From: a virus
Taxonomy: Duplodnaviria; Heunggongvirae; Uroviricota; Caudoviricetes
Direction: 5' to 3' (one strand)
Virus record (IMG/VR): IMGVR_UViG_2778261203_000005
Location: 1-8,229 of that record
Length of the DNA: 8,229 bases
Shown one piece after another: positions 1 through 8,229 of this stretch (the first letter of the stretch is position 1; each line of letters starts with the position of its first letter). The notes below the pieces were generated by a model. That model searched no databases and was not told the origin of the DNA. It was given only the letters and a program-made list of their open reading frames with translations. A program made the translations under genes and the position numbers.

Positions 1-1005
1 TTAATCCCCCGTGGACACTGCGTGGACACTTACGCCACCTTTCAGCGGATTAAGGGCCACCGCATCCTGCAGGTAATCCGGTGCAAAATGCGCATATGCC
101 ATTGTTTGCTGAATGGTTGCGTGACCAAGAATCTTCTGAAGCGCAATAATGTTTCCTCCGTTCATCACAAAATGGCTGGCGAACGTATGCCGCAGCACAT
201 GTGCAGCCTGGCCTTTTGGTAAATCGGGCTTAACTCTTTTCAGCGCCAGGCAGAATTCCCGGTACTTCACCTCAAACAAGCCGCCTGTTTCTCTGGTTTT
301 GATCGCCTCACAAACTGCCTGCGAAATTGGCACTGTTCTCTTCCGGCCATTTTTGGTTTCAAGAAACGTTACACGGTTATGAACTATCTGTTCACCACGA
401 AGCTTACAAGCTTCACTCCAGCGCGCCCCTGTGCTTAAACACAAAAGCGCAACACGCCAGTAGTCGCCCTCCAGTGTATCGAGCAATAGCGCCACTTCCT
501 TCTGTGACAGGAACGCCATTTCTCGTGGAGATACATAAAGAATAGAAATTCCCCTTACTGGATGTTCTGCATCCCAAAGACCTATTTTTTTCAGCACGGT
601 AAACATTCCGGATAACCGATTCATGTACCTGTTAGCAGATGACGGTTTCAATCCTTCAGCTATCTTTTGAGAACGCCACGCGATAATTTTCAGCTTATCA
701 AGATCCACAGCCTGCATATCAGCGCCAAGCTCATTGATTATGTTGCGCAGTTGTTTTCGGTCTTCTTCCGCCTTACGCCTGTGCTGGCCGTGATACATCC
801 ACCACAACTCAAGCAAATCATTTAGCGTTCGACGATCACGGTAGCCCTGTATATATTCCCGCTTTTCAGCGTTCGCCATGATGTAGCGTTCAGTGGCCAC
901 CGCTACCGATTTTTTGTCAAATACCTTACGCACGCGCTTTCCCTTGCGTCCGTTCGGCCTGATGTCCAGCAAATAACGACCATCTTCGAGCTTCTTAATA
1001 GACAT
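1..1005 (-). CDS. int: Phage integrase, tyrosine recombinase (P2 Int-like), 334 aa
   Basis: The 339-aa ORF on the minus strand matches P2 integrase from memory (N-terminus SIKKLEDGRY..., C-terminal motifs HVLRHTFASHF and QQTMAYAHFAPDYLQDA..NPL). Catalytic tyrosine-recombinase residues are visible (ARWSEA, H-x-x-R, Y in TMAYAHF). The ORF track starts at a TTG at 1020; the ATG at 1005-1003 is preceded by GGAGGG with 7 nt spacing and gives the P2-like N-terminus, so I place the start there. The stop is at 3-1. Confidence 0.93.
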   Translation of the reverse strand: MSIKKLEDGRYLLDIRPNGRKGKRVRKVFDKKSVAVATERYIMANAEKREYIQGYRDRRTLNDLLELWWMYHGQHRRKAEEDRKQLRNIINELGADMQAVDLDKLKIIAWRSQKIAEGLKPSSANRYMNRLSGMFTVLKKIGLWDAEHPVRGISILYVSPREMAFLSQKEVALLLDTLEGDYWRVALLCLSTGARWSEACKLRGEQIVHNRVTFLETKNGRKRTVPISQAVCEAIKTRETGGLFEVKYREFCLALKRVKPDLPKGQAAHVLRHTFASHFVMNGGNIIALQKILGHATIQQTMAYAHFAPDYLQDAVALNPLKGGVSVHAVSTGD

Positions 1006-1101
1006 TACGAAGCCCTCCAATGAACCGCTCTACAATTTCTCCAGCTTCTTTCCAGCAATAATCAGACCAGACAAAAAGCAGGTCTAACCAGTTTTCTGGC
1101 C

Positions 1102-1422
1102 TCAGCGGGATAATTTTTGGATTGTTTCGGTTGAAACGCGATCTCCCTCCGAATTGCAGGAACCATCAAGAGAGAGAGCCGGAGAAATTTGCCCGACCTC
1201 CGGCATCGTTTCATCTGTTGATAACCAATAAGCATACTTCTTAAATTTAGGGTGTTTCGTAACCTTAAGTAAGGCACCCTCTGTTACTTGCTTCCCCCTC
1301 ACCTCATAGTTAGTTACCGTCCCATAAGGCAGCCCAACACAATCCGCAAACTCCTGGCGGGTCATACCTTCTGCTTCACGAATCAGGCGAAATTTTTCAC
1401 CCATGCTTGACAAAGATGCCAT
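1102..1422 (-). CDS. C: Immunity repressor, P2 C-type, 106 aa
   Basis: The translation MASLSSMGEKFRLIREAEGMTRQEFADCVGLPYGTVTNYE...HPKFKKYAYWLSTDE..PEVGQISPALS resembles P2 C repressor as I remember it (helix-turn-helix plus the QIAPAL-like C-terminus). It lies between int and a divergent cox, as in P2. The start is chosen at the ATG 1422-1420, 9 nt downstream of GGAGGA; the ORF-track start at 1476 would add an unlikely Cys-rich leader. Confidence 0.8.
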   Translation of the reverse strand: MASLSSMGEKFRLIREAEGMTRQEFADCVGLPYGTVTNYEVRGKQVTEGALLKVTKHPKFKKYAYWLSTDETMPEVGQISPALSLDGSCNSEGDRVSTETIQKLSR

Positions 1423-1461
1423 ATCGGGCATATCCTCCATCGAAACATGCCACATCGGGCA
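1407..1461 (+). promoter_or_regulatory. Candidate early promoter Pe (-35 TTGACA 1407-1412, -10 TATCCT 1431-1436) flanked by a 15-bp direct repeat (candidate C operators)
   Basis: A perfect TTGACA sits 18 nt upstream of TATCCT on the + strand, reading toward cox. ATGCCATATCGGGCA (1416-1430) and ATGCCACATCGGGCA (1447-1461) are 14/15 identical direct repeats 31 bp apart, bracketing the -10. P2 C repressor is known to bind direct repeats flanking the Pe -10. No experimental evidence is available here. Confidence 0.5.
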
Positions 1462-1480
1462 CAAACATAAAAACACTCAA

Positions 1481-1510
1481 ATAAGCCGATATAAGCCATT
1501 TTGAGCCATT
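1481..1510. promoter_or_regulatory. Three tandem imperfect 10-bp repeats (ATAAGCCGAT / ATAAGCCATT / TTGAGCCATT) just upstream of the cox RBS; candidate Cox-binding boxes over the Pc region
   Basis: The repeats are directly visible with helical (10 bp) periodicity, lying between the candidate Pe and the cox Shine-Dalgarno (AGGGAG 1521-1526). In P2, Cox represses Pc by binding several direct repeats. The Pc hexamers could not be placed confidently on the minus strand. Confidence 0.35.
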
Positions 1511-1535
1511 CGAACGAATTAGGGAGATTACCACA

Positions 1536-1823
1536 ATGAGCGAATCAGAGCTTGGGGGGTTCATTCAGGTAGCACCATATCCACTTGAAGCGGTGCCATA
1601 TCAACTATTCGCCAAGATGATCGGCCGCAAGGAATCCACAGTCAGAACCATGATTGACGCAGCAAAGCTACCGACAATTGACTTTGTGAAACCAGGTTCA
1701 GTAAAGACGCGTGCATCAGAAAACTGGGTATATCTGCCAGCATTTAACGAAGGCATGCGCAAAGCGTTTTTTGAGCAACCGAAAGAACGCCGCGACGCAT
1801 GGTTGTTGTGGCTGGGACTTTAG
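1536..1823 (+). CDS. cox: Cox-like excisionase / early-lytic regulator, 95 aa
   Basis: The translation ...VPYQLFAKMIGRKESTVRTMIDAAKLPTIDF....ENWVYLPAFNEGMRKAFFEQPKERRDAWLLWLGL aligns with P2 Cox from memory (IPYQEFAKLIG...VRRMID.GKLPVID...EYWVYLPAWN...PKEIRDGWLMWLGL). It has a good SD (AGGGAG, 9 nt spacing) and is divergent from C. Confidence 0.88.
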   Translation: MSESELGGFIQVAPYPLEAVPYQLFAKMIGRKESTVRTMIDAAKLPTIDFVKPGSVKTRASENWVYLPAFNEGMRKAFFEQPKERRDAWLLWLGL

Positions 1824-1829
1824 TCATAA

Positions 1830-2036
1830 ATGACCAGCCATATCATCAGCGCCATTCTGACCCTTGTTTTTATTGAGATAGGCGTAATAGCGATCTATTT
1901 GTTTCGCAAGTTAACGGGACATGAAGAACGCTTTATTGAACTCAGCATTGAATATATCGCCGCTTATACCAAAGGACTTTTCCCGGCAGCTATTGGGGCG
2001 ATGTTTATAGCGTTTGTTATCTGGTTTATCGGGTGA
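1830..2036 (+). CDS. Small hydrophobic protein, 68 aa, two predicted transmembrane helices; function unknown
   Basis: The ORF starts 7 nt after the cox stop. Two hydrophobic stretches are visible (IISAILTLVFIEIGVIAIYLF and LFPAAIGAMFIAFVIWFIG). There is no clear SD. Its position matches the small ORF that follows cox in P2-like phages. Confidence 0.45.
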   Translation: MTSHIISAILTLVFIEIGVIAIYLFRKLTGHEERFIELSIEYIAAYTKGLFPAAIGAMFIAFVIWFIG

Positions 2037-2063
2037 GAAACCTGACAACCCACAACTACTGCA

Positions 2064-2183
2064 ATGAGGGTAATTATGTGTGGCATGGACAAATTGGACC
2101 TTATGTTAATTGTAATACTATCAATTAACTTCGGTTACCTCTTAAGCGGCGCAATTCTCATGTGCGGAGGCAAACGAAAATGA
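2064..2183 (+). CDS. Possible 39-aa membrane peptide (MRVIMCGMDKLDLMLIVILSINFGYLLSGAILMCGGKRK)
   Basis: Found by manual translation; it is not in the ORF track because it is too short. It has a hydrophobic core and a basic C-terminus, and its stop overlaps the next ATG (ATGA). No SD is evident, so it is speculative. Confidence 0.2.
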   Translation: MRVIMCGMDKLDLMLIVILSINFGYLLSGAILMCGGKRK

Positions 2184-2287
2184 ACCAGCAGTCCGCAAAA
2201 CGTGAAAACAATGCGATGCGATTTAATCGCAAATATTTTGAGTTCGGCCTCTATGCCGGAATAATTAAATCTGTACAGAGTCTTTAA
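2180..2287 (+). CDS. Possible 35-aa basic peptide (MNQQSAKRENNAMRFNRKYFEFGLYAGIIKSVQSL)
   Basis: Found by manual translation. Its start overlaps the preceding stop (ATGA) and its stop lies 1 nt before the ATG at 2289. Speculative. Confidence 0.2.
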   Translation: MNQQSAKRENNAMRFNRKYFEFGLYAGIIKSVQSL

Positions 2288-2288
2288 C

Positions 2289-2630
2289 ATGAAACAGCAA
2301 CGTAATTCACGCTTTCGCAATGGTGCAGAACGCCACGCTAACCGTTTTGCTACCAGTGCATCACGCAGCAACATCCGCTACAGCCTGAGTGATACACACG
2401 CAACGCCGGATGGCTACCCAGTAAAACAAATCGGCGAGCATGCCTGGCTGATTGAGAAAGCTGGAATCGTGATCCACAAATGCCCACGCAATCCGTTTAC
2501 CGGAAACCGCATTTTTGCTCTAAGCAGTGGCGACAATCAGTTCGGGCAGGATTTCACATTATACGAAGCACTTCGCACGGTTGATCGTCTGCTTCGCGGG
2601 CAAAGTTTTATTAAACAGGCTGATTTATAA
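2289..2630 (+). CDS. Hypothetical early-operon protein, 113 aa, basic N-terminus
   Basis: A non-overlapping ORF in the same orientation as cox, tightly packed with its neighbours. I do not recognise a family; it may correspond to one of the small P2 early genes (B / orf80-83 region), but this is not verified. Confidence 0.5.
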   Translation: MKQQRNSRFRNGAERHANRFATSASRSNIRYSLSDTHATPDGYPVKQIGEHAWLIEKAGIVIHKCPRNPFTGNRIFALSSGDNQFGQDFTLYEALRTVDRLLRGQSFIKQADL

Positions 2631-2640
2631 CAGGTGCTTT

Positions 2641-2928
2641 ATGACCAAAGACCATGCACAAGGTGTATTTATCCGTTTTATTGATTTTCGCGGTGAACTG
2701 TTATTACGTGCATCCGCTATTGACGGAGTGACTCCGGCGGGTAAAAACGGAGCCGACGAAGCCACTTACGTTTATCTGAACGGCACGCGACTGCTTGTGG
2801 AACTTCCGTACCAGACCGTACGAGAAATCATTAGCGAAGCTGAAAAGGCACGCCAGGTTAATGGCGATGAACCCTATATCGAAATTATTTGTATGGATTC
2901 AGAAGCTGAAATACAGAAAGCAGATTAA
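2641..2928 (+). CDS. Hypothetical early-operon protein, 95 aa (MTKDHAQGVFIRFIDFRGELLLRA...)
   Basis: The ATG at 2641 starts 10 nt after the previous stop. The ORF-track start at 2527 would overlap the upstream gene by about 100 nt in another frame, so I prefer 2641. Family not recognised. Confidence 0.55.
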   Translation: MTKDHAQGVFIRFIDFRGELLLRASAIDGVTPAGKNGADEATYVYLNGTRLLVELPYQTVREIISEAEKARQVNGDEPYIEIICMDSEAEIQKAD

Positions 2929-2939
2929 AGGGCGTTGTG

Positions 2940-3182
2940 ATGGGCAAAGAATATAAAACTCTCATTAACAAAGCACTTGAGCGTTTTTATTTTCGCTTAA
3001 GTGCATCAGGCGCTCATGCTGAACGTGCGGCCCGTGACTCATTGACCAGAGCAATCCGAAGTCTGTATGACGTGGCTTTTTACGCTGATGATCTGGATGC
3101 ACTTAACGAACTTTCCGAGCTGATCTGTGCCGCAGAATGCGGGGAACATATTGAACCGTATAAGTTGGGGAATATCGCATGA
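2940..3182 (+). CDS. Hypothetical early-operon protein, 80 aa
   Basis: The ATG at 2940 is preceded by AAAGGG with 7 nt spacing. The predicted protein is acidic and helical-looking (…AFYADDLDALNELSELICAAECGEH…). Family not recognised. Confidence 0.55.
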   Translation: MGKEYKTLINKALERFYFRLSASGAHAERAARDSLTRAIRSLYDVAFYADDLDALNELSELICAAECGEHIEPYKLGNIA

Positions 3183-3293
3183 GTATATTTATCTCATGGC
3201 TTGTTCTGATTATTTCGGTGGCCTGCGCTATTGGGATTATGCGAATTATTCATTCAATAAAAAAGATTGAACGCTTTTTCACTGGCGAATAAC
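3179..3293 (+). CDS. Possible 37-aa single-pass membrane peptide (MSIFISWLVLIISVACAIGIMRIIHSIKKIERFFTGE)
   Basis: Found by manual translation. The ATG overlaps the upstream stop (ATGA). It has an N-terminal hydrophobic helix and a basic C-terminal tail, an architecture shared with small membrane toxins and holin-like peptides. Confidence 0.35.
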
Positions 3294-3378
3294 AGAGCAA
3301 ATAAAACCACAGATTAAATAAGAAAATGTAAAAACAATCCGCATTCGCGGAGGTATTCGCACACGCCAAGGAGGCGTA

Positions 3379-3582
3379 ATGGCAATTAAGCATTTTCCTG
3401 TCGTTCGTTTTACCTCCAGAGGGCGTGAATACGAAGTCGACGAACGCCTGATTACCACAATCGACAAACACCGTTCAGAAAAGGATGCACATCACATCTA
3501 TCTCACTGACGGCACTTACTTCTGCGCCACGAATGTGGTGCGGGTGAACCTTATCCGACAGGTACAGGAGTCACGCAGATGA
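3379..3582 (+). CDS. Hypothetical protein, 67 aa
   Basis: Strong SD (AAGGAGG 3368-3374) ahead of the ATG at 3379, preceded by an AT-rich, promoter-like 85-bp gap. The stop overlaps the next start (ATGA). Family not recognised; it has one Cys only, so it is not Ogr-like. Confidence 0.6.
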   Translation: MAIKHFPVVRFTSRGREYEVDERLITTIDKHRSEKDAHHIYLTDGTYFCATNVVRVNLIRQVQESRR

Positions 3583-3794
3583 CCATTCTGGACTATATCG
3601 CCGCCAACCCGAACGCAGGTGTGAAACGCGAGATTGCAACCCTTTCCCGCGCCCTGAAAAAAGCCGATTCCGCAGCCGAACCAGAAGACGCCAGCGCACA
3701 GCAGGCGCAGGACGAAAGCAGCAAAAGTAAAAAGACAACGCGGAAGCCTGCAACACGAAAAACCACCGCGACGCAGAAGGCGAAGCGCGGTTAA
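3579..3794 (+). CDS. Hypothetical protein, 71 aa, with Lys/Thr/Ala-rich basic low-complexity C-terminal tail
   Basis: Translationally coupled to the 67-aa ORF. The C-terminus (KSKKTTRKPATRKTTATQKAKRG) looks like a histone-like or nucleic-acid-binding tail. The GC content rises sharply from this ORF onward. Confidence 0.55.
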   Translation: MTILDYIAANPNAGVKREIATLSRALKKADSAAEPEDASAQQAQDESSKSKKTTRKPATRKTTATQKAKRG

Positions 3795-3811
3795 CGACTG
3801 ACCCCGTCAGC

Positions 3812-3882
3812 GGGCGGCGTGCGCGGTGTTCCGGTTTGACTCCGTGACCGTTTACACCGCGCACCCACCGCCCGATTTTTTT
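3812..3882 (+). terminator. Candidate rho-independent terminator: long GC-rich imperfect hairpin followed by a T7 run
   Basis: GTGCGCGGTGT (3819-3829) pairs perfectly with ACACCGCGCAC (3854-3864), extended by GGGCGG (3812-3817) with CCGCCC (3868-3873) across a small internal loop. The 24-nt loop has its own CGGT/ACCG pairing. The stem is followed by GA then TTTTTTT (3876-3882). The large loop is atypical, so it may instead be a regulatory structure. Confidence 0.45.
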
Positions 3883-3965
3883 CAGGAGTGAACCCCATGA
3901 GTATGGTTGCCAGAACTGAACCAGGACCCGCAGAGGACGACATCACCGATAAAGGAGAAGGACGA

Positions 3966-4358
3966 ATGAGCAACACATTTAAATTCAGCAGCCGAAGCGA
4001 AAATAATTTGCAGGGCGTAAATCCTGATCTGGTGAAAGTGACCCGACGGGCACTGGAAATCTCGGAAGTGGATTTTGGTATCACCGAAGGGTTGCGCAGC
4101 CGTTACCGCCAGAAGCAACTTGTGGCCACAGGTAAGAGCCAGACCATGAACAGCCGCCACCTTACGGGGCATGCCGTGGATGTTGTGGCTTATATCGGCA
4201 GCCAGGTGTCATGGGAATGGCCGCTGTACGAAAAAATCGCAGCAGCATTCAGACAGGCCAGCCGGGAACTGAATATTCCGGTGGAATGGGGCGGCGACTG
4301 GAAGACCCTGAAAGACGGACCGCATTTTCAGTTACCACACGGAGCCTATCCGGCATGA
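3966..4358 (+). CDS. Endolysin, peptidase M15 family (L-alanyl-D-glutamate peptidase, T5 Lys-like), 130 aa
   Basis: Zn-binding motifs of VanY/M15 peptidases are visible (SRHLTGHAVDVV and GGDW....GPHFQL). From the ATG at 3966 the protein aligns with phage T5 endolysin as I remember it (MS.FKF........VKPELQKVARRALEL..DF vs MSNTFKF...VNPDLVKVTRRALEISEVDF). SD AGGAGAAGG 4 nt upstream. An alternative upstream ATG at 3897 (SD CAGGAG) would add a 23-aa acidic extension. Confidence 0.9.
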   Translation: MSNTFKFSSRSENNLQGVNPDLVKVTRRALEISEVDFGITEGLRSRYRQKQLVATGKSQTMNSRHLTGHAVDVVAYIGSQVSWEWPLYEKIAAAFRQASRELNIPVEWGGDWKTLKDGPHFQLPHGAYPA

Positions 4359-4762
4359 AGCTCTGGCCCACGCTGGGTGTCGCTTTCCTTCTGATTGCCG
4401 GATGGGGAACATCCATGCGTCTGTCGTGGTCGCTGGGCCGGGAGAACGCCAGAAACGAAGCGCAGGCCAGCACCCTGAAAAGTACCGCCGACACCCTGAA
4501 TATCATCAGCGCCGGGGTACAGGATATGCAGCAGGTGCTGGCGCAACTCCGCGTGGAAAATCAGCAACGCAATCAGGACGGAGAGGTAAGACGTGAACAG
4601 CTACGCAACGATATTGCAAAAGATGAATGCGCCCACGCTTTGCCTGACGCTCGTTTTACTGACAGGCTGCGCAGGCACGCAGAACGCGCCACTGCCAGCG
4701 CCGTCAGTCCGGCTTATACCGCAGACGCTGACCATACCGGTAACGCCTCCCCCCTTCCCTGA
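4355..4762 (+). CDS. Rz-like inner-membrane spanin (i-spanin), 135 aa
   Basis: The ATG overlaps the endolysin stop (ATGA). It has an N-terminal transmembrane segment (LWPTLGVAFLLIAGWG) followed by a charged, coiled-coil-like periplasmic region (QDMQQVLAQLRVENQQRNQDGEVRREQLRNDIAKDE). Its position and architecture match P2 lysB and lambda Rz. Confidence 0.78.
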   Translation: MKLWPTLGVAFLLIAGWGTSMRLSWSLGRENARNEAQASTLKSTADTLNIISAGVQDMQQVLAQLRVENQQRNQDGEVRREQLRNDIAKDECAHALPDARFTDRLRRHAERATASAVSPAYTADADHTGNASPLP

Positions 4763-4913
4763 CACTCCCACATGGGGAAATCTCGGTATATGGGGCGACC
4801 GCCTTCTGGATGCACTGGAAACCTGTAACGCGGATAAACGGGCCATTGAATTACTGGAACAGCGCAGGCTGCAACGACTGAACAACGAGGATAACAACCA
4901 TGCTGAAAACTGA
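4623..4913 (+). CDS. Rz1-like outer-membrane lipoprotein spanin (o-spanin), 96 aa
   Basis: The start lies inside the Rz gene in a different frame. It has a signal peptide with lipobox LLTGC and a proline-rich mature region (PLPAPSVRLIPQTLTIPVTPPPFPDTP) typical of Rz1 and P2 lysC. It extends past the Rz stop and overlaps the start of R. Confidence 0.72.
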   Translation: MNAPTLCLTLVLLTGCAGTQNAPLPAPSVRLIPQTLTIPVTPPPFPDTPTWGNLGIWGDRLLDALETCNADKRAIELLEQRRLQRLNNEDNNHAEN

Positions 4914-5367
4914 TTCCCTGCGTGAAGCCATGACCCGTTCATGCCGATGGTGTCAGGCCAACCCGGAAAAATTCACCATTTTCGTGGAGAGCGGCAACAT
5001 TGAAACGACAGGAGAAACCCCATCGTTTGTTTACCGCTATCAGATGGTGATGTTTGTCATGGATTACGCCGGGGAGCTGGACGACCTCACGCTGCCGCTG
5101 CTGGCGTGGTTATCCGAAAATCAGCCACAGTTGTTGCTCAACCCTGAGCGTAATCAGGACATCAAATTCTCCGCCGTTATCAATGACGATGACAGCGCCG
5201 ATCTCCTGTTTACGCTCCCCCTGCGGGAACGCGTTCGCATCACGCGCAGCAGTCAGGGCACACCGCAGGCAGAACACCTGCCGGAGCCAAAACCCCGCCT
5301 GCCCTCTTCCGAAGGCGACTGGTCGCATGTATTCCAGGATGTGACGTGGGGTGAAAGCGATGGATAA
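4900..5367 (+). CDS. R: Tail completion protein R (P2 gpR-like), 155 aa
   Basis: The N-terminus MLKTDSLREAMT and internal LPLLAWLSENQPQLL match P2 gpR from memory (MLKPDSLRRAL..., VPVLAWLRENQPD). Same length as P2 gpR (155 aa). SD GAGGA 9 nt upstream. Confidence 0.88.
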   Translation: MLKTDSLREAMTRSCRWCQANPEKFTIFVESGNIETTGETPSFVYRYQMVMFVMDYAGELDDLTLPLLAWLSENQPQLLLNPERNQDIKFSAVINDDDSADLLFTLPLRERVRITRSSQGTPQAEHLPEPKPRLPSSEGDWSHVFQDVTWGESDG

Positions 5368-5995
5368 GGCATTCACCCGCGTGGATGAAACCTTTGAGGC
5401 CATCCGCGACAGCCTGAATCAGCAGGCCATCAATAACATCGCCAGAAAGCTGGCACAGGATTTACGCCGCGCCCAGCAGGCGCGTATCCGGTCACAGAAA
5501 GCGCCGGACGGGACCGCGTGGACACCACGCAGACGCCGCGTAACCCGGATACAGGAACGCATTCGCTTTATCTGGAATAACGAAGCACGCACGCTGAAAA
5601 ACTGGCATCACGACACGGGGAAATACGGGCGAACCATCACCGGGTGGGATGAGGATAAAAACAATATCCGTACGTTTTACCGGGATGACATCGACCGTTT
5701 TCTGGAAATACGCACCCGGCGCATCAACCAGGACAGCACAAAGCGCGTCCCCATGTTCGTAAAACTGCGCACCGCCCGCTACCTGAAAGCCCGTGCAGAT
5801 GCTTCCGGTGTGACGGTGGGTTACAGCGGCGTGGCCGCACGTATTGCACGCGTTCATCAGTTCGGTGAGCGCGATCAGGTTGCGCCGGGCATTTTCACCG
5901 ATTACCCGGTACGTGAGCTGCTGGGTATCAGCCAGGCAGATGAGCGCCTGATTTATAACACGGTGCTGGGCCGGATTGCGGAGGCTGTACGGTGA
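5360..5995 (+). CDS. S: Tail completion / virion morphogenesis protein S (P2 gpS-like), 211 aa
   Basis: The N-terminal region (IARKLAQDLRRAQQARIRSQKAPDGTAWTPRRRR) and C-terminal region (AARIARVHQFGERDQVA....TDYPVRELLGIS) match the gpS family from memory. The ATG at 5360 overlaps the R stop; the ORF-track start is a GTG at 5351. It is about 60 aa longer than I recall for P2 gpS. Confidence 0.85.
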   Translation: MDKAFTRVDETFEAIRDSLNQQAINNIARKLAQDLRRAQQARIRSQKAPDGTAWTPRRRRVTRIQERIRFIWNNEARTLKNWHHDTGKYGRTITGWDEDKNNIRTFYRDDIDRFLEIRTRRINQDSTKRVPMFVKLRTARYLKARADASGVTVGYSGVAARIARVHQFGERDQVAPGIFTDYPVRELLGISQADERLIYNTVLGRIAEAVR

Positions 5996-6573
5996 GCGCA
6001 GAACTCATGCGACTGCTGAGCAATATCATCCGTACCGGGATCATCTCTGAAGTTGATGAGAAGTCCTGGCGCGTGCGCGTTCGCAGCGGCGGACTGGAAA
6101 CAGGCTGGCTGCGCTGGAACACCACGCGCGCGGGAGCCTTCAATGTGTGGCTGCCGCCATCACCCGGCGAACAGGTGGTAATTGCCTGCATTGGCGGCAA
6201 CCCGGAAACCGCCATGATAATTGGCAGCCTGTGGAGTGATGCCAGTCCGGCCCCCGGCAAAAGCCTGAAAGAAATCGTGGTCAGCGCGCCGGACGGCGCG
6301 GTGTTCCGCTACGACGCGGACGCAGGCGCGCTGAGCGCCAGCGGCATGAAAACAGCCAGCCTGCAGGCATCCGTCAGCGTGACACTGGACGCGCCCGTCG
6401 TGGAATGCACAGACCTTCTGAGAACAGCGACGCTTGACGTCACAAAAGGGGGAAAGATGAGCGGCAATATCACGCACAGCGGCGGCGATTTCACCTCAAA
6501 CGGCATCACAGTGCATACGCATAAACACGGTGGCGTGAAAGGCGGCAGTGATTCGACAGGAGGCCCGCAGTGA
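5992..6573 (+). CDS. V: Baseplate assembly protein V (spike), P2 gpV-like, 193 aa
   Basis: Motifs IRTGIISEVD, GWLRW, GEQVVIACIGG, PDGAVFRYD, SGMKTAS, GNITHSGG.TSNGITVHTHKH match P2 gpV from memory. GTG start overlapping the S stop (GTGA), with GGAGG 6 nt upstream. Confidence 0.9.
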   Translation: MSAELMRLLSNIIRTGIISEVDEKSWRVRVRSGGLETGWLRWNTTRAGAFNVWLPPSPGEQVVIACIGGNPETAMIIGSLWSDASPAPGKSLKEIVVSAPDGAVFRYDADAGALSASGMKTASLQASVSVTLDAPVVECTDLLRTATLDVTKGGKMSGNITHSGGDFTSNGITVHTHKHGGVKGGSDSTGGPQ

Positions 6574-6920
6574 CAACCCGCTACACAGGAATGAATCCGG
6601 ACGGGACGGGAAACCTGAACGATACGGAGCACCTGAAACAGTCAGTCAGGGACATCCTGACCACCCCGCTGGCAAGCCGGGTTATGCGACGGGAATATGG
6701 CAGCCTTGTGCCTGATTTGATTGACGAACCCATGAATAACACCACGCGTCTGCAATGCATGAGTGCTGCCGTGATTGCACTGACGCGATGGGAACCCCGC
6801 ATTGCCCTGGACGCTATCGACGTTGTCTGGAAAGCGGGAGGCCGCGCCGGGGTGACGCTGTCGGGTACAGTCATGCAGACCATGCAGAATGTTGAATTAA
6901 CCATCACACTGAGGGAGTAA
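6570..6920 (+). CDS. W: Baseplate wedge protein W (GPW/gp25 family), 116 aa
   Basis: MTTRYTGMN...SRVMRREYGSL...WEPRIAL...VTLSGT matches P2 gpW from memory (MTARYLGMN...SRVMRRDYGSL...WEPRVTL). GTG start overlapping the V stop, with GGAGG 6 nt upstream. Confidence 0.9.
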   Translation: MTTRYTGMNPDGTGNLNDTEHLKQSVRDILTTPLASRVMRREYGSLVPDLIDEPMNNTTRLQCMSAAVIALTRWEPRIALDAIDVVWKAGGRAGVTLSGTVMQTMQNVELTITLRE

Positions 6921-6923
6921 ATC

Positions 6924-7820
6924 ATGCCTGCCGTTGACCTTTCCCAGTTACCAGAACCCGCCATCATCGCGGAGCCTGATTTTGAGGCAATTCTGGCTGA
7001 CACAAAGGCCATGATGATTGCAGCTTATCCCGCCGAACAGCGTGAAGTCGTTTCCGCCGCGCTGGAGCTGGAATCGGAACCCCTGAACGTTATCGCCCAG
7101 ACAACAGCGTTTCGTGAAATGCTGTTACGCCAGCGGGTCAATGAGGGTGCACGCGCCTGCATGTTAAGCCACAGCGCCGGAACAGACCTGGACAACCTCG
7201 CGGGCAATATGAACACAAAGCGCCTGGTTATCACTCCGGCAACGGATACCACCGACGCGGTGATGGAGAGCGACACCTCGCTGAGACTGCGGGCGCAGCG
7301 GGCGTACGACGGCCTGAGTGTTGCTGGCCCGTCAGGTGCATACGAGTATTTTGCCCGCAGCGCCAGCGGTCTGGTGCGTGATGCGCGGGCTATCAGTCCG
7401 TCTCCGGCAAATGTGACGGTTTCCATCCTGTCTACTGAAGGCGACGGCACAGCAACGGAGGCGTTGCTTAATACCGTTCGCGCCGTTCTGAATGCAGAGG
7501 ATACCCGCCCGGTGGCCGACCGCCTGACCGTACAGAGTGCCAGAATCGTGACATGGCGGCTGAATGCAAAACTGTACTTTTACCCCGGCCCGGAATCCGA
7601 ACCTATTCTGGCCGCGGCGGAATCGTCGTTCAGGAAGTGGCTGGCTGAGCAGGGGCTTATCGGTCAGGACGTGGCGTTGTCCGCCATTGCTGCCGCACTG
7701 CATGTACACGGTGTGCAACGCGTGGAGATAATCGAACCCACACAGAATATGGCCATCAGCGACATACAGGCGGCGCGCTGTGAGTCATTTACCATCAGCG
7801 AAGGTGGGCGCAATGAGTAA
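6924..7820 (+). CDS. J: Baseplate assembly protein J, P2 gpJ-like, 298 aa
   Basis: Extensive similarity to P2 gpJ from memory (LESEPL, RQRVNE.ARA.ML, AVMESDT..RLR.Q.A..GLSVAG..GAY.Y..RSA, RPVADRLTVQSA, YPGPESEPI.AAA, LSAI.AALHV.GVQRVE). SD GAGGGAG. Confidence 0.92.
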   Translation: MPAVDLSQLPEPAIIAEPDFEAILADTKAMMIAAYPAEQREVVSAALELESEPLNVIAQTTAFREMLLRQRVNEGARACMLSHSAGTDLDNLAGNMNTKRLVITPATDTTDAVMESDTSLRLRAQRAYDGLSVAGPSGAYEYFARSASGLVRDARAISPSPANVTVSILSTEGDGTATEALLNTVRAVLNAEDTRPVADRLTVQSARIVTWRLNAKLYFYPGPESEPILAAAESSFRKWLAEQGLIGQDVALSAIAAALHVHGVQRVEIIEPTQNMAISDIQAARCESFTISEGGRNE

Positions 7821-8229
7821 TTCACTGTTACCGCCATCAGCCAGCAGTTTCATGCGTTGTGCCGAAGCCGTCGGAACGCGCATTACAGACATTCCGGTAG
7901 ACCTCAACACGCTGTGGTCGCCGGACACATGCCCGGTGCATCTGCTGCCTTATCTCGCCTGGGCATTTTCCGTTGACCGCTGGGACCGCAACTGGCCGGA
8001 GGAAACAAAGCGCCAGGTGATTCGCGATGCGTGGCTGATACACCGACACAAGGGGACCATCAGCGCACTGCGAAGAGCCGTGGAGCCTCTCGGCTACCTG
8101 ATTGAAGTAAAGGAGTGGTGGCAACTCAACGAGGAGCCGGGAACATTTCGCATTGTTGTCGGAGTACTTGATCAGGGCATCCCCATAATGCCAATGGTGC
8201 GTGGATACGCTGGTCAGATGGTGCAATAG
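7813..8229 (+). CDS. I: Baseplate protein I, P2 gpI-like, 138 aa as read (ends exactly at window edge)
   Basis: The core LW.PDTCP..LLP.LAWAFSVDRWD..WPE.TKR.VIRDA..IH.HKGTI.A.RR.VEPLGYLI.V.EWW......PGTFR...GVL matches P2 gpI from memory. The ATG at 7813 overlaps the J stop (ATGAGTAA). The product is shorter than my recollection of P2 gpI (about 176 aa); the stop TAG sits at 8227-8229, the last bases of the window. Confidence 0.85.
   Translation: MSNSLLPPSASSFMRCAEAVGTRITDIPVDLNTLWSPDTCPVHLLPYLAWAFSVDRWDRNWPEETKRQVIRDAWLIHRHKGTISALRRAVEPLGYLIEVKEWWQLNEEPGTFRIVVGVLDQGIPIMPMVRGYAGQMVQ

Follow-up and report, generated by a model that had tools for sequence, protein, structure and literature searches.

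A 948-bp deletion probably accounts for the missing holin in the lysis cassette of a P88-like Escherichia coli prophage

How could a phage lyse its host with an endolysin and a pair of spanins but no holin? This question is raised by the lysis cassette in the stretch of viral DNA analyzed here (8,229 nt in total; hereafter the window). In the normal pathway, as judged from the established role of the lambda-S family Phage_holin_3_1, the holin would permeabilise the inner membrane, the endopeptidase would cut peptidoglycan and the spanin pair would disrupt the outer membrane. The first-pass annotation stated correctly that a cytoplasmic endolysin needs a holin, and proposed that the holin was encoded remotely or downstream, or that release used a non-canonical route. 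Alignment to intact relatives spoke against these proposals and revealed a clean 948-bp deletion. We consider it about 90% probable that the holin-less cassette is explained by a defective, decaying P88-like prophage in which this deletion removed the holin gene. Coordinates are collected in Table 1.

Table 1. Genes, remnants and deletion junctions of the window
Feature	Position	Strand	Basis or description
Tyrosine integrase	1-1005	-	Called gene; Pfam Int_N and Phage_integrase; next to pdxB
HTH immunity repressor, 106 aa	1102-1422	-	Gene call; helix-turn-helix protein or transcriptional regulator in relatives
Cox-family protein, first gene of early operon	1536-1823	+	Pfam Phage_Cox; annotation in relatives
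68-aa early gene, holin candidate 1 of the first-pass annotation	1830-2036	+	phrog_14475 (unknown function), E 2e-41
37-aa early gene, holin candidate 2 of the first-pass annotation	3179-3292	+	No match in Pfam or PHROGs
Chimeric 71-aa ORF	3579-3794	+	9 codons unique to early MarR-like gene, in frame with codons 205-266 of small terminase gpM
Junction J1	3606-3611		~12.3 kb deleted (13.5 kb in P88 coordinates)
Strong hairpin followed by U-run, terminator-like	3811-3881	+	Native gpM-gpL intergenic region
Gene L remnant	3897-3951	+	Start codon, 18 codons and 1 nt; window 3897 is L002 6292, the annotated gpL start
Junction J2	3951/3952		948-bp deletion (L002 6347-7294)
Holin remnant	3952-3969	+	Last 5 codons (KEKDE) and TGA; stop overlaps endolysin ATG (ATGA); read from the sequence
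M15 (L-alanyl-D-glutamate peptidase type) endolysin, 130 aa, intact, cytoplasmic	3966-4358	+	Pfam, PHROG and PDB matches
Rz-like i-spanin	4355-4762	+	phrog_214, E 7e-42
Rz1/LysC o-spanin lipoprotein	4623-4913 (ORF open from 4593)	+	Pfam LysC, E 1e-12
Tail/baseplate genes R (4900-5367), S (5351-5995), V (5992-6573), W (6570-6920), J (6924-7820)	4900-7820	+	Pfam; intact
Tail gene I, truncated and continued out of frame by a 3' piece of tail-fibre gene H, 138 aa	7813-8229	+	Third deletion
Junction J3	8181/8186		1325 bp of I/H lost; CCCA filler

All three chimeric proteins encoded in the window mapped to a single NCBI contig, NMNN01000016.1, of an E. coli draft assembly (GCA_002468085.1). On this contig the prophage adjoins the host genes pdxB-usg-truA-dedA-accD-folC; the window is the end of the contig, which stops 147 bp past the stop codon of the truncated gene I ORF. 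A full-length relative occupies the same pdxB site in E. coli CH4804, and over its leftmost 3.6 kb it agrees with the window at 99.9% identity, the same value as between the two integrases. The gene order of the CH4804 prophage includes a holin as well as both early membrane-peptide genes. Our other intact reference (L002) was a prophage of E. coli F2_407_2_2, a genome in which 4-5 places match P88-like sequence (several copies in one genome). Compared with such intact relatives, the element is a P88-like (Xuanwuvirus, Peduoviridae) prophage with three deletions. It uses the attachment site of intact relatives and has lost essential genes, as found in defective (cryptic) prophages: the three deletions together took A, portal Q, large-terminase P, scaffold O, capsid N, L, X and the holin, along with most of M and parts of I and H.

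The endolysin matched Pfam Peptidase_M15_4 (PF13539; E 8e-12, 46 bits against a cut-off of 25) and PHROG endolysin phrog_465 (E 7e-77). Among solved structures it matched 23ri (E 1e-48), Serratia ChiX (5opz, 4e-48), 8q2g (1e-46) and T5 endolysin (2mxz, 5e-22), each match spanning residues 4/5 to 128-130, so that similarity to both ChiX and T5 Lys is full-length. The His/Asp motifs SRHLxGxAVDV and DGPHxQ are conserved in the alignment to 23ri. Judged by these matches, the protein belongs to the M15 L-alanyl-D-glutamate endopeptidase endolysins (T5 Lys/ChiX type), with Zn-dependent cleavage of the L-Ala-D-Glu bond as its predicted activity. The earlier label "T5-type" is only loosely apt, the ChiX-type match being much stronger than that to T5. 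The N-terminus is polar or acidic, and no signal or SAR segment was found in the 130-aa or the 153-aa form of the protein (top 19-residue Kyte-Doolittle mean 0.54 in both); a self-exporting endolysin was rejected on this hydropathy scan. Family, structure and hydropathy results thus agree with the description of an M15 endolysin without signal or SAR sequence. An exact-protein look-up placed the identical 130-aa endolysin on 222 contigs of Escherichia and Shigella.

The two spanins reported in the first-pass annotation were also recovered, with PHROG and Pfam matches and a lipobox in support. For the i-spanin, a Pfam DUF2570 match fell below its cut-off, and the N-terminal stretch LWPTLGVAFLLIAGWG is hydrophobic, yet under the transmembrane threshold used (Kyte-Doolittle maximum 1.34); an N-terminal membrane anchor is therefore only presumed, from family membership. 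The o-spanin additionally matched phrog_3001 (E 3e-25) and phrog_456 (E 3e-15), and its lipobox LLTGC is readable in the translation. Its start was taken as the ATG at 4623, a later start being annotated in relatives; with this start it overlaps Rz by 140 nt (4623-4762) and runs 151 nt beyond it, to 4913. The pair thus has the overlapped architecture of two-component spanins (Rz/Rz1, P2 LysB/LysC), with the o-spanin in the +1 frame.

A search of Pfam and PHROGs yielded no holin family match among the ORFs of the 8,229-nt window, every small membrane ORF included, which bears out the remark that no identifiable holin accompanies the endolysin and spanins. The reason became apparent when the window was aligned to L002. 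Segments 3606-3951 and 3952-8181 are each 100% identical to that prophage but lie 948 bp farther apart there, and the L002 annotation of the missing 948 bp reads head completion protein, tail protein X and phage holin family protein. The same gap was seen against phage P88 (97.5% identity) and against the CH4804 prophage. Deletion J2 removes gpL codons 19-164, all of gpX and codons 1-102 of the 107 holin codons, and this is why the cassette has no holin. The deleted 107-aa protein, examined in its intact copy, matched Pfam Phage_holin_3_1 (PF05106, E 1e-19) and phrog_126 holin/anti-holin (E 2e-35), has hydrophobic segments and a charged C-terminus, and in L002 ends in RRVKEKDE. Full-length gpL matched Pfam Phage_GPL (E 2e-45). 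In the complete P88/Xuanwuvirus cassette the holin gene immediately precedes that of the endolysin, its stop codon overlapping the endolysin start; the window lacks this part. The endolysin, i-spanin and o-spanin genes are intact and keep their synteny with tail genes R and S. The endolysin Shine-Dalgarno sequence AAGGAG is kept inside the holin-gene remnant. By alignment to intact relatives, the absence of the holin is a scar left by deletion, not part of the cassette's design.

The same deletion explains a second start proposed for the endolysin, at 3897, which was said to add an acidic 23-residue extension. An in-frame ATG does exist there and opens a 153-aa ORF; it is not the native endolysin start. 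The ORF is a gpL'-endolysin fusion, and its 23-aa extension consists of the first 18 residues of the head-completion protein gpL and 5 junction-encoded residues (KGEGR). It is in frame with the endolysin because J2 fused the start of gene L to the endolysin gene.

The other two deletions were recognized in the same manner. Judging by what the intact CH4804 prophage encodes, J1 took replication gene A, the portal, large-terminase, scaffold and capsid genes, codons 1-204 of gpM and those early genes that are not left in the window. In alignments to relatives, positions 1-3611 match the early region and 3606-3951 the 3' end of gpM plus the 5' end of gpL; the two BLAST alignments share 6 nt at the junction, which read AACCCG in the window and AATCCG in CH4804. 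The ORF spanning this junction, upstream of the endolysin, had been described as not being a membrane protein, and the hydropathy scan agreed; the ORF itself is a deletion product, with residues 9-70 matching the PHROG terminase small subunit (E 1e-16). Between this ORF and the endolysin lies a hairpin (minimum free energy -50.6 kcal/mol over 3790-3900, z -5.05 versus shuffles), the sequence of which is 100% identical in L002; a promoter/terminator consensus scan gave counts near the shuffled expectation. The R-S-V-W-J block is likewise 100% identical to L002, and the third deletion follows it.

The rearranged junctions are rare. Of the 5426 complete E. coli genomes searched, 1008 carry the intact holin-endolysin junction and none carries the J2 junction, nor was the latter found in exact scans of GTDB genomes, JGI metagenomes and IMG/VR contigs. 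When the chimeric ORFs were looked up exactly among ~15 billion proteins, only the source contig and its Logan counterpart were returned: the 3579-3794 protein was found on this NCBI contig and in the Logan assembly, and the 138-aa I/H product on this contig only.

A rival reading is that the missing holin is an artefact of the assembly or the library and that the real genome has an intact L-X-holin segment. The source is a draft assembly and the window lies at a contig end; multiple P88-like copies per genome, as in F2_407_2_2, may confuse assemblers; and J2 shows no microhomology in the junction sequence comparison, while J3 carries the 4-nt filler. We nevertheless regard an artefact as very unlikely. 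With short reads, an assembler ends the contig when it meets a repeat and does not, as a rule, produce a clean deletion inside it, and an element with three separate deletions is what prophage decay typically yields. Moreover, the J1 and J2 chimeric proteins are recorded in both NCBI and Logan, that is, by independent assemblers, although the two assemblies probably rest on the same read set and J3 rests on the NCBI assembly only. Lower still in our estimation is the idea that one of the two early membrane peptides acts as the holin for the M15 endolysin, as the first-pass annotation had suggested (giving 3179-3293 for the smaller). Both have hydrophobic segments of transmembrane length, two in the 68-aa peptide (residues 1-30 and 46-68) and one in the 37-aa peptide (residues 1-28, followed by a basic tail). 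However, neither matches a Pfam holin family or a PHROG lysis family, and both are conserved early-operon genes, kept at the same positions in Xuanwuvirus P884B11 (as gp41 and gp47, respectively) and in the CH4804 prophage. Since they coexist in the latter with a bona fide Phage_holin_3_1 holin, they are not replacements for it. In addition, the two genes lie just downstream of cox, which would suggest early expression and fits lysis timing poorly.

The remaining alternative is that the holin-less module works in a non-canonical way, with the help of a holin provided in trans, as a device domesticated for secretion or abortive lysis, or through a self-exported endolysin. The frames of the endolysin, spanins and R to J are intact and the endolysin Shine-Dalgarno sequence is kept, and ChiX, the closest solved homologue, comes from a domesticated secretion system derived from phage lysis (PMC4259817, PMC5778951). 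But ChiX secretion itself depends on the holin ChiW (PMC4259817), and here neither form of the endolysin has a signal or SAR segment. The arrangement occurs in one genome and was absent from the other collections searched; 100% identity to an intact phage would leave no time for selection; a terminator-like hairpin lies just upstream; and the accompanying tail module is broken at I/H. We therefore find this alternative highly improbable. In one specific form of it, the intact endolysin (with an optional 18-residue gpL tag) and spanins, now directly downstream of the Cox early operon, would be a retained functional module, silent in the lysogen, switched on upon derepression or superinfection and supplied with a holin in trans. 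This version seems scarcely credible to us; if true, the module might speed lysis of cells infected by another phage, an abortive-infection-like effect. Two related assignments were considered and rejected. A tailocin (tail and lysis genes without head genes) does not agree with the truncated I, the deletion of most of H and the flanks 100% identical to an intact phage. A ChiWXYZ-type secretion system, considered since ChiX ranks among the best structural matches, does not agree with the lack of holin and cargo or with the prophage context; similarly, the integrase, repressor and tail genes set the locus apart from Type 10 secretion systems.

Comparison with known systems places the cassette in the P88 lineage. 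It shares the endolysin, Rz, Rz1/LysC and the R-S-V-W-J order with P88 and other Xuanwuvirus cassettes at 97-100% nucleotide identity, and differs from them in that the holin, gpL and gpX are deleted and the upstream genes, probably together with the late promoter, are gone as well. The lysis region of phage P2 comprises the Y holin, the K lysozyme-type endolysin, lysA, lysB and lysC. Like it, the cassette occupies a late-operon position between X and tail gene R and has overlapped spanins of the LysB/LysC type (Pfam LysC). Unlike in P2, the endolysin belongs to the M15 metallopeptidases rather than the lysozymes, the lineage has the lambda-S-like PF05106 protein as its native holin instead of Y, and the interval from the endolysin to Rz carries no annotated lysA-like gene. 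The Y/K pair, used as the reference in the first-pass annotation, was thus not apt for a Xuanwuvirus element. ChiX differs in its setting, being a chromosomal secretion component that works with ChiW (PMC4259817), whereas here a prophage endolysin has lost its holin.

Intact endolysin, spanin and R-J genes, a kept ribosome-binding site and an in-frame fusion also have the look of a selected functional arrangement. However, 4.2 kb of 100% identity with an intact phage speaks neither for nor against selection.

The explanation that we favor, loss of the holin from a decaying prophage, can be outlined as follows. The late gene order of intact relatives is M - L - X - holin - M15 endolysin - Rz - Rz1/LysC - R - S - V - W - J - I - H. 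P88 is an inducible, plaque-forming phage (PMC5285337), and therefore the intact cassette works. Illegitimate recombination may have caused the 948-bp loss, comprising L from codon 19, X and holin codons 1-102, and the same event joined the first 18 L codons in frame to the endolysin. The ~12.3 kb deletion took the genes for replication, packaging and the capsid and, if P2 is a guide, probably also the divergent late-promoter region driving the operon. The third deletion cut tail genes I and H short. The deletions appear recent, given flanks that match an intact prophage at 100% identity. We infer that the cassette is a recent relic, unable to lyse the cell alone; it could act only with a holin in trans, for example from another prophage or a superinfecting phage.

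In cryptic E. coli prophages, internal deletions remove replication, head and lysis genes, and integrase, repressor and scattered late genes stay. The element described here follows the same decay pattern with nothing distinctive, apart from deletions that appear recent. The locus is thus a case of ordinary prophage decay, with no new lysis mode or new biology. With regard to annotation, three ORFs called on this contig are deletion chimeras: the "M15 peptidase" of 153 aa and those of 71 and 138 aa. A single comparison explains at once why the holin is absent, how the odd ORF upstream arose and what the "alternative start" is, and orphan endolysin-spanin cassettes of prophage-like regions should be aligned to intact relatives before non-canonical lysis is proposed.

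The window carries the lysis cassette known from P88-like Peduoviridae with its holin deleted: the genes are otherwise the same and they lie within a defective prophage. Loss of genes by deletion is a familiar route of prophage decay, so the arrangement is of no new kind. The ORF map and the Pfam and PHROG searches bore out the M15 endolysin and overlapping spanins claimed by the first-pass annotation, as well as the missing holin, as no ORF in the window matched a holin family in either database. The endolysin scored 46 bits against a Pfam cut-off of 25 (E 8e-12) and belonged to an endolysin family in PHROG (E 7e-77). Its closest solved structures were 23ri, Serratia ChiX (5opz, E 4e-48) and 8q2g, titled 'L-alanyl-D-glutamate endopeptidase', followed by the T5 endolysin (2mxz, E 5e-22). 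The hydropathy scan revealed no hydrophobic N-terminus in this protein (maximum 19-residue Kyte-Doolittle mean 0.54). The o-spanin gene overlaps the Rz gene and runs on past its end. LysC/Rz1 starts in the region 4593–4913 differ among annotations: F2_407_2_2 has an 89-aa form, whereas E. coli CH4804 and the source contig both have a 65-aa form, which begins downstream of the lipobox and thus leaves it out. When translated from the ATG at 4623, the precursor is 96 aa long and its signal peptide ends in LLTGC.

Lysis genes and deletion junctions (J1–J3) in the window
Feature	Position	Support or extent
J1	3606–3611	~12.3 kb lost relative to CH4804 (~13.5 kb in P88 coordinates)
J2	3951/3952	exactly 948 bp lost (6347–7294 of L002, the intact F2_407_2_2 prophage)
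M15 endolysin, 130 aa	3966–4358	Pfam Peptidase_M15_4; PHROG phrog_465
Rz-like i-spanin	4355–4762	phrog_214, E 7e-42
LysC/Rz1 o-spanin	4623–4913	Pfam PF23793, E 1e-12; lipobox LLTGC
J3	8181/8186	1325 bp lost; 4-nt filler CCCA

Exact matches of its proteins showed that the window forms the end of contig NMNN01000016.1 (GCA_002468085.1, 101.5 kb), and the prophage directly adjoins pdxB-usg-truA-dedA-accD-folC, a typical E. coli neighbourhood. Only 147 bp remain beyond the window before the contig stops inside H-derived sequence (L004 10418–10564), which may reflect a repeat elsewhere in the genome, another P2-like tail-fibre gene. By megablast, positions 1–3611 (integrase, repressor, cox, DUF4761, DUF4754 and a number of small ORFs) aligned at 99.9% identity with the early region shared by Xuanwuvirus P884B11 and P88-like prophages, and positions 3606–8181 matched the late region of the group at 97–100% identity, in every case split in two pieces. 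Counted from a GTG, the repressor ORF (1102–1476) spans 124 open codons; annotations give it 106 aa (321 nt) in CH4804 and the source contig, and 100 aa (303 nt) in P884B11. G+C content steps from 43–47% in the early/lysogeny part (1–3500) to 55–61% in the late part (3500–8229), which suggests that P88-like genomes are mosaic, with two halves of separate origin. A full-length relative occupies the same pdxB site in E. coli CH4804, in the order int - repressor - cox - early genes - MarR-like - replication endonuclease - ParM - portal - large terminase - scaffold - capsid - gpM - gpL - gpX - holin - M15 peptidase - DUF2570 (Rz) - LysC - R - S - V - W - J - I - H. The late gene order is shared by phage P88, which is inducible and forms plaques, with a latent period of ~20 minutes (PMC5285337). 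The CH4804 prophage (L007 28017–29291, 31416–33166) has ParM-type partition genes; its large-terminase and partition genes are frameshifted, so this prophage is decaying as well, by another route.

Direct BLAST of the window against intact loci and inspection of the junctions were used to map three deletions. J1 removed the remaining early genes, replication, portal, large terminase, scaffold, capsid and gpM codons 1–204. The two aligned pieces overlap there by 6 nt (AACCCG in the window, AATCCG in CH4804), and the first codons of an early MarR-like gene run in frame into codon 205 of the small-terminase gene M, of which the last 62 codons are left. This fusion produced the 71-aa chimeric ORF at 3579–3794 (residues 9–70 matching the small terminase C-terminus in PHROG, E 1e-16), which had earlier been described as not a membrane protein. 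J3 cost the prophage a portion of gene I together with most of the 5' part of H, so that a truncated gene I (138 aa) now runs out of frame into a 3' remnant of the tail-fibre gene H. The stop codon of this fusion is the exact end of the window (8229). Identity of 100% to the intact F2_407_2_2 prophage across 4.2 kb suggests that the deletions are recent, and the intactness of the remaining genes is uninformative on selection.

The deletion at J2 removed gpL codons 19–164, the entire gpX and holin codons 1–102 of 107. Both flanks match the intact F2_407_2_2 prophage at 100% identity, and junction inspection revealed no microhomology. The lost 107-aa protein was assigned to Phage_holin_3_1 (lambda S family; Pfam, E 1e-19) and to phrog_126 'holin/anti-holin' (E 2e-35), and had hydrophobic segments and a strongly charged C-terminus in the hydropathy scan; judged by sequence, the deleted gene encodes a holin. 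P2 uses a lysozyme and the holin Y, whereas an M15 peptidase and an S-like holin, the native one of this lineage, are normal for Xuanwuvirus. The 18-nt holin remnant (AAG GAG AAG GAC GAA TGA) codes for the final five residues, KEKDE, and holds the endolysin Shine-Dalgarno; its stop overlaps the endolysin ATG. The alternative endolysin start proposed at 3897 proved to be the annotated gpL start codon (L002 6292), fused in frame by J2, and not a native N-terminus. Because the reading frame is kept across J2, the ORF from 3897 consists of MSMVARTEPGPAEDDITD (gpL residues 1–18), KGEGR at the junction and the endolysin, and gene callers annotated this 153-aa gpL'-endolysin chimera on the source contig.

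It is improbable that the missing holin is an assembly artefact, because J1 and J2 are seen in the NCBI assembly and again in Logan, which assembles public reads independently. A 301-nt probe of the intact holin-endolysin junction was matched at essentially full length in 1008 of 5426 complete E. coli genomes. In contrast, probes of the deleted junction were contiguous in 0 of these 5426: coverage stayed below 80% in all of them, even though over 1000 matched each half separately. The exact 36-nt junction string was not found in GTDB representative genomes, JGI metagenomes or IMG/VR. Exact look-up among ~15 billion proteins placed each of the three chimeric proteins on one NCBI contig, the source (two were also recorded from Logan), and the normal 130-aa endolysin on 222 contigs. 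Since the deleted junction and chimeric proteins were found only in the source genome, the holin-less state appears private and does not represent a variant lineage. A holin-independent or trans-complemented function of the cassette is very unlikely, given an endolysin without an export signal, an arrangement private to one genome and broken tail genes; even the ChiX homologue requires its holin, ChiW (PMC4259817).

There is equally little likelihood that a remote holin is encoded inside the window, for which the first-pass annotation had named 1830–2036 and 3179–3293. The ORF at 1830–2036 (68 aa, two hydrophobic segments) matched phrog_14475, annotated as function unknown, and that at 3179–3292 (37 aa, one hydrophobic segment) had no family match in Pfam or PHROG. 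They correspond to gp41 and gp47 of P884B11, at the same early-operon positions, and both occur in the CH4804 prophage, where a holin is already encoded next to the endolysin. These are ordinary early genes in phages of this group and offer no replacement for the lost holin. Tandem overlapping 35-aa ORFs at 2076–2183 (one hydrophobic segment) and 2180–2287, equivalent to gp42 and gp43 of P884B11, also lie in the early operon; neither had a family match.

Holin deletion is by far the most probable reading. A strong hairpin (3811–3881; -50.6 kcal/mol over 3790–3900, z -5.05) followed by a U-run (GAUUUUUUU) separates the early operon from the endolysin. It lies in the native intergenic stretch between the small-terminase gene M and the head-completion gene L, and is 100% conserved in the intact F2_407_2_2 prophage. 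It resembles an intrinsic terminator, mid-way through what in P2 is one late operon; a simple terminator scan of the window did not pick it up. By analogy with P_P/P_O of P2, the divergent late-promoter region (large terminase/scaffold) would fall within the first deletion. In intact relatives, going by established family roles, opening of the inner membrane would fall to the S-type holin, murein breakdown to the cytoplasmic M15 endopeptidase and disruption of the outer membrane to the Rz/Rz1 pair. In the prophage remnant, the endolysin would have no route to the periplasm, and, failing a holin provided in trans, the lysis cassette is most reasonably considered inert.
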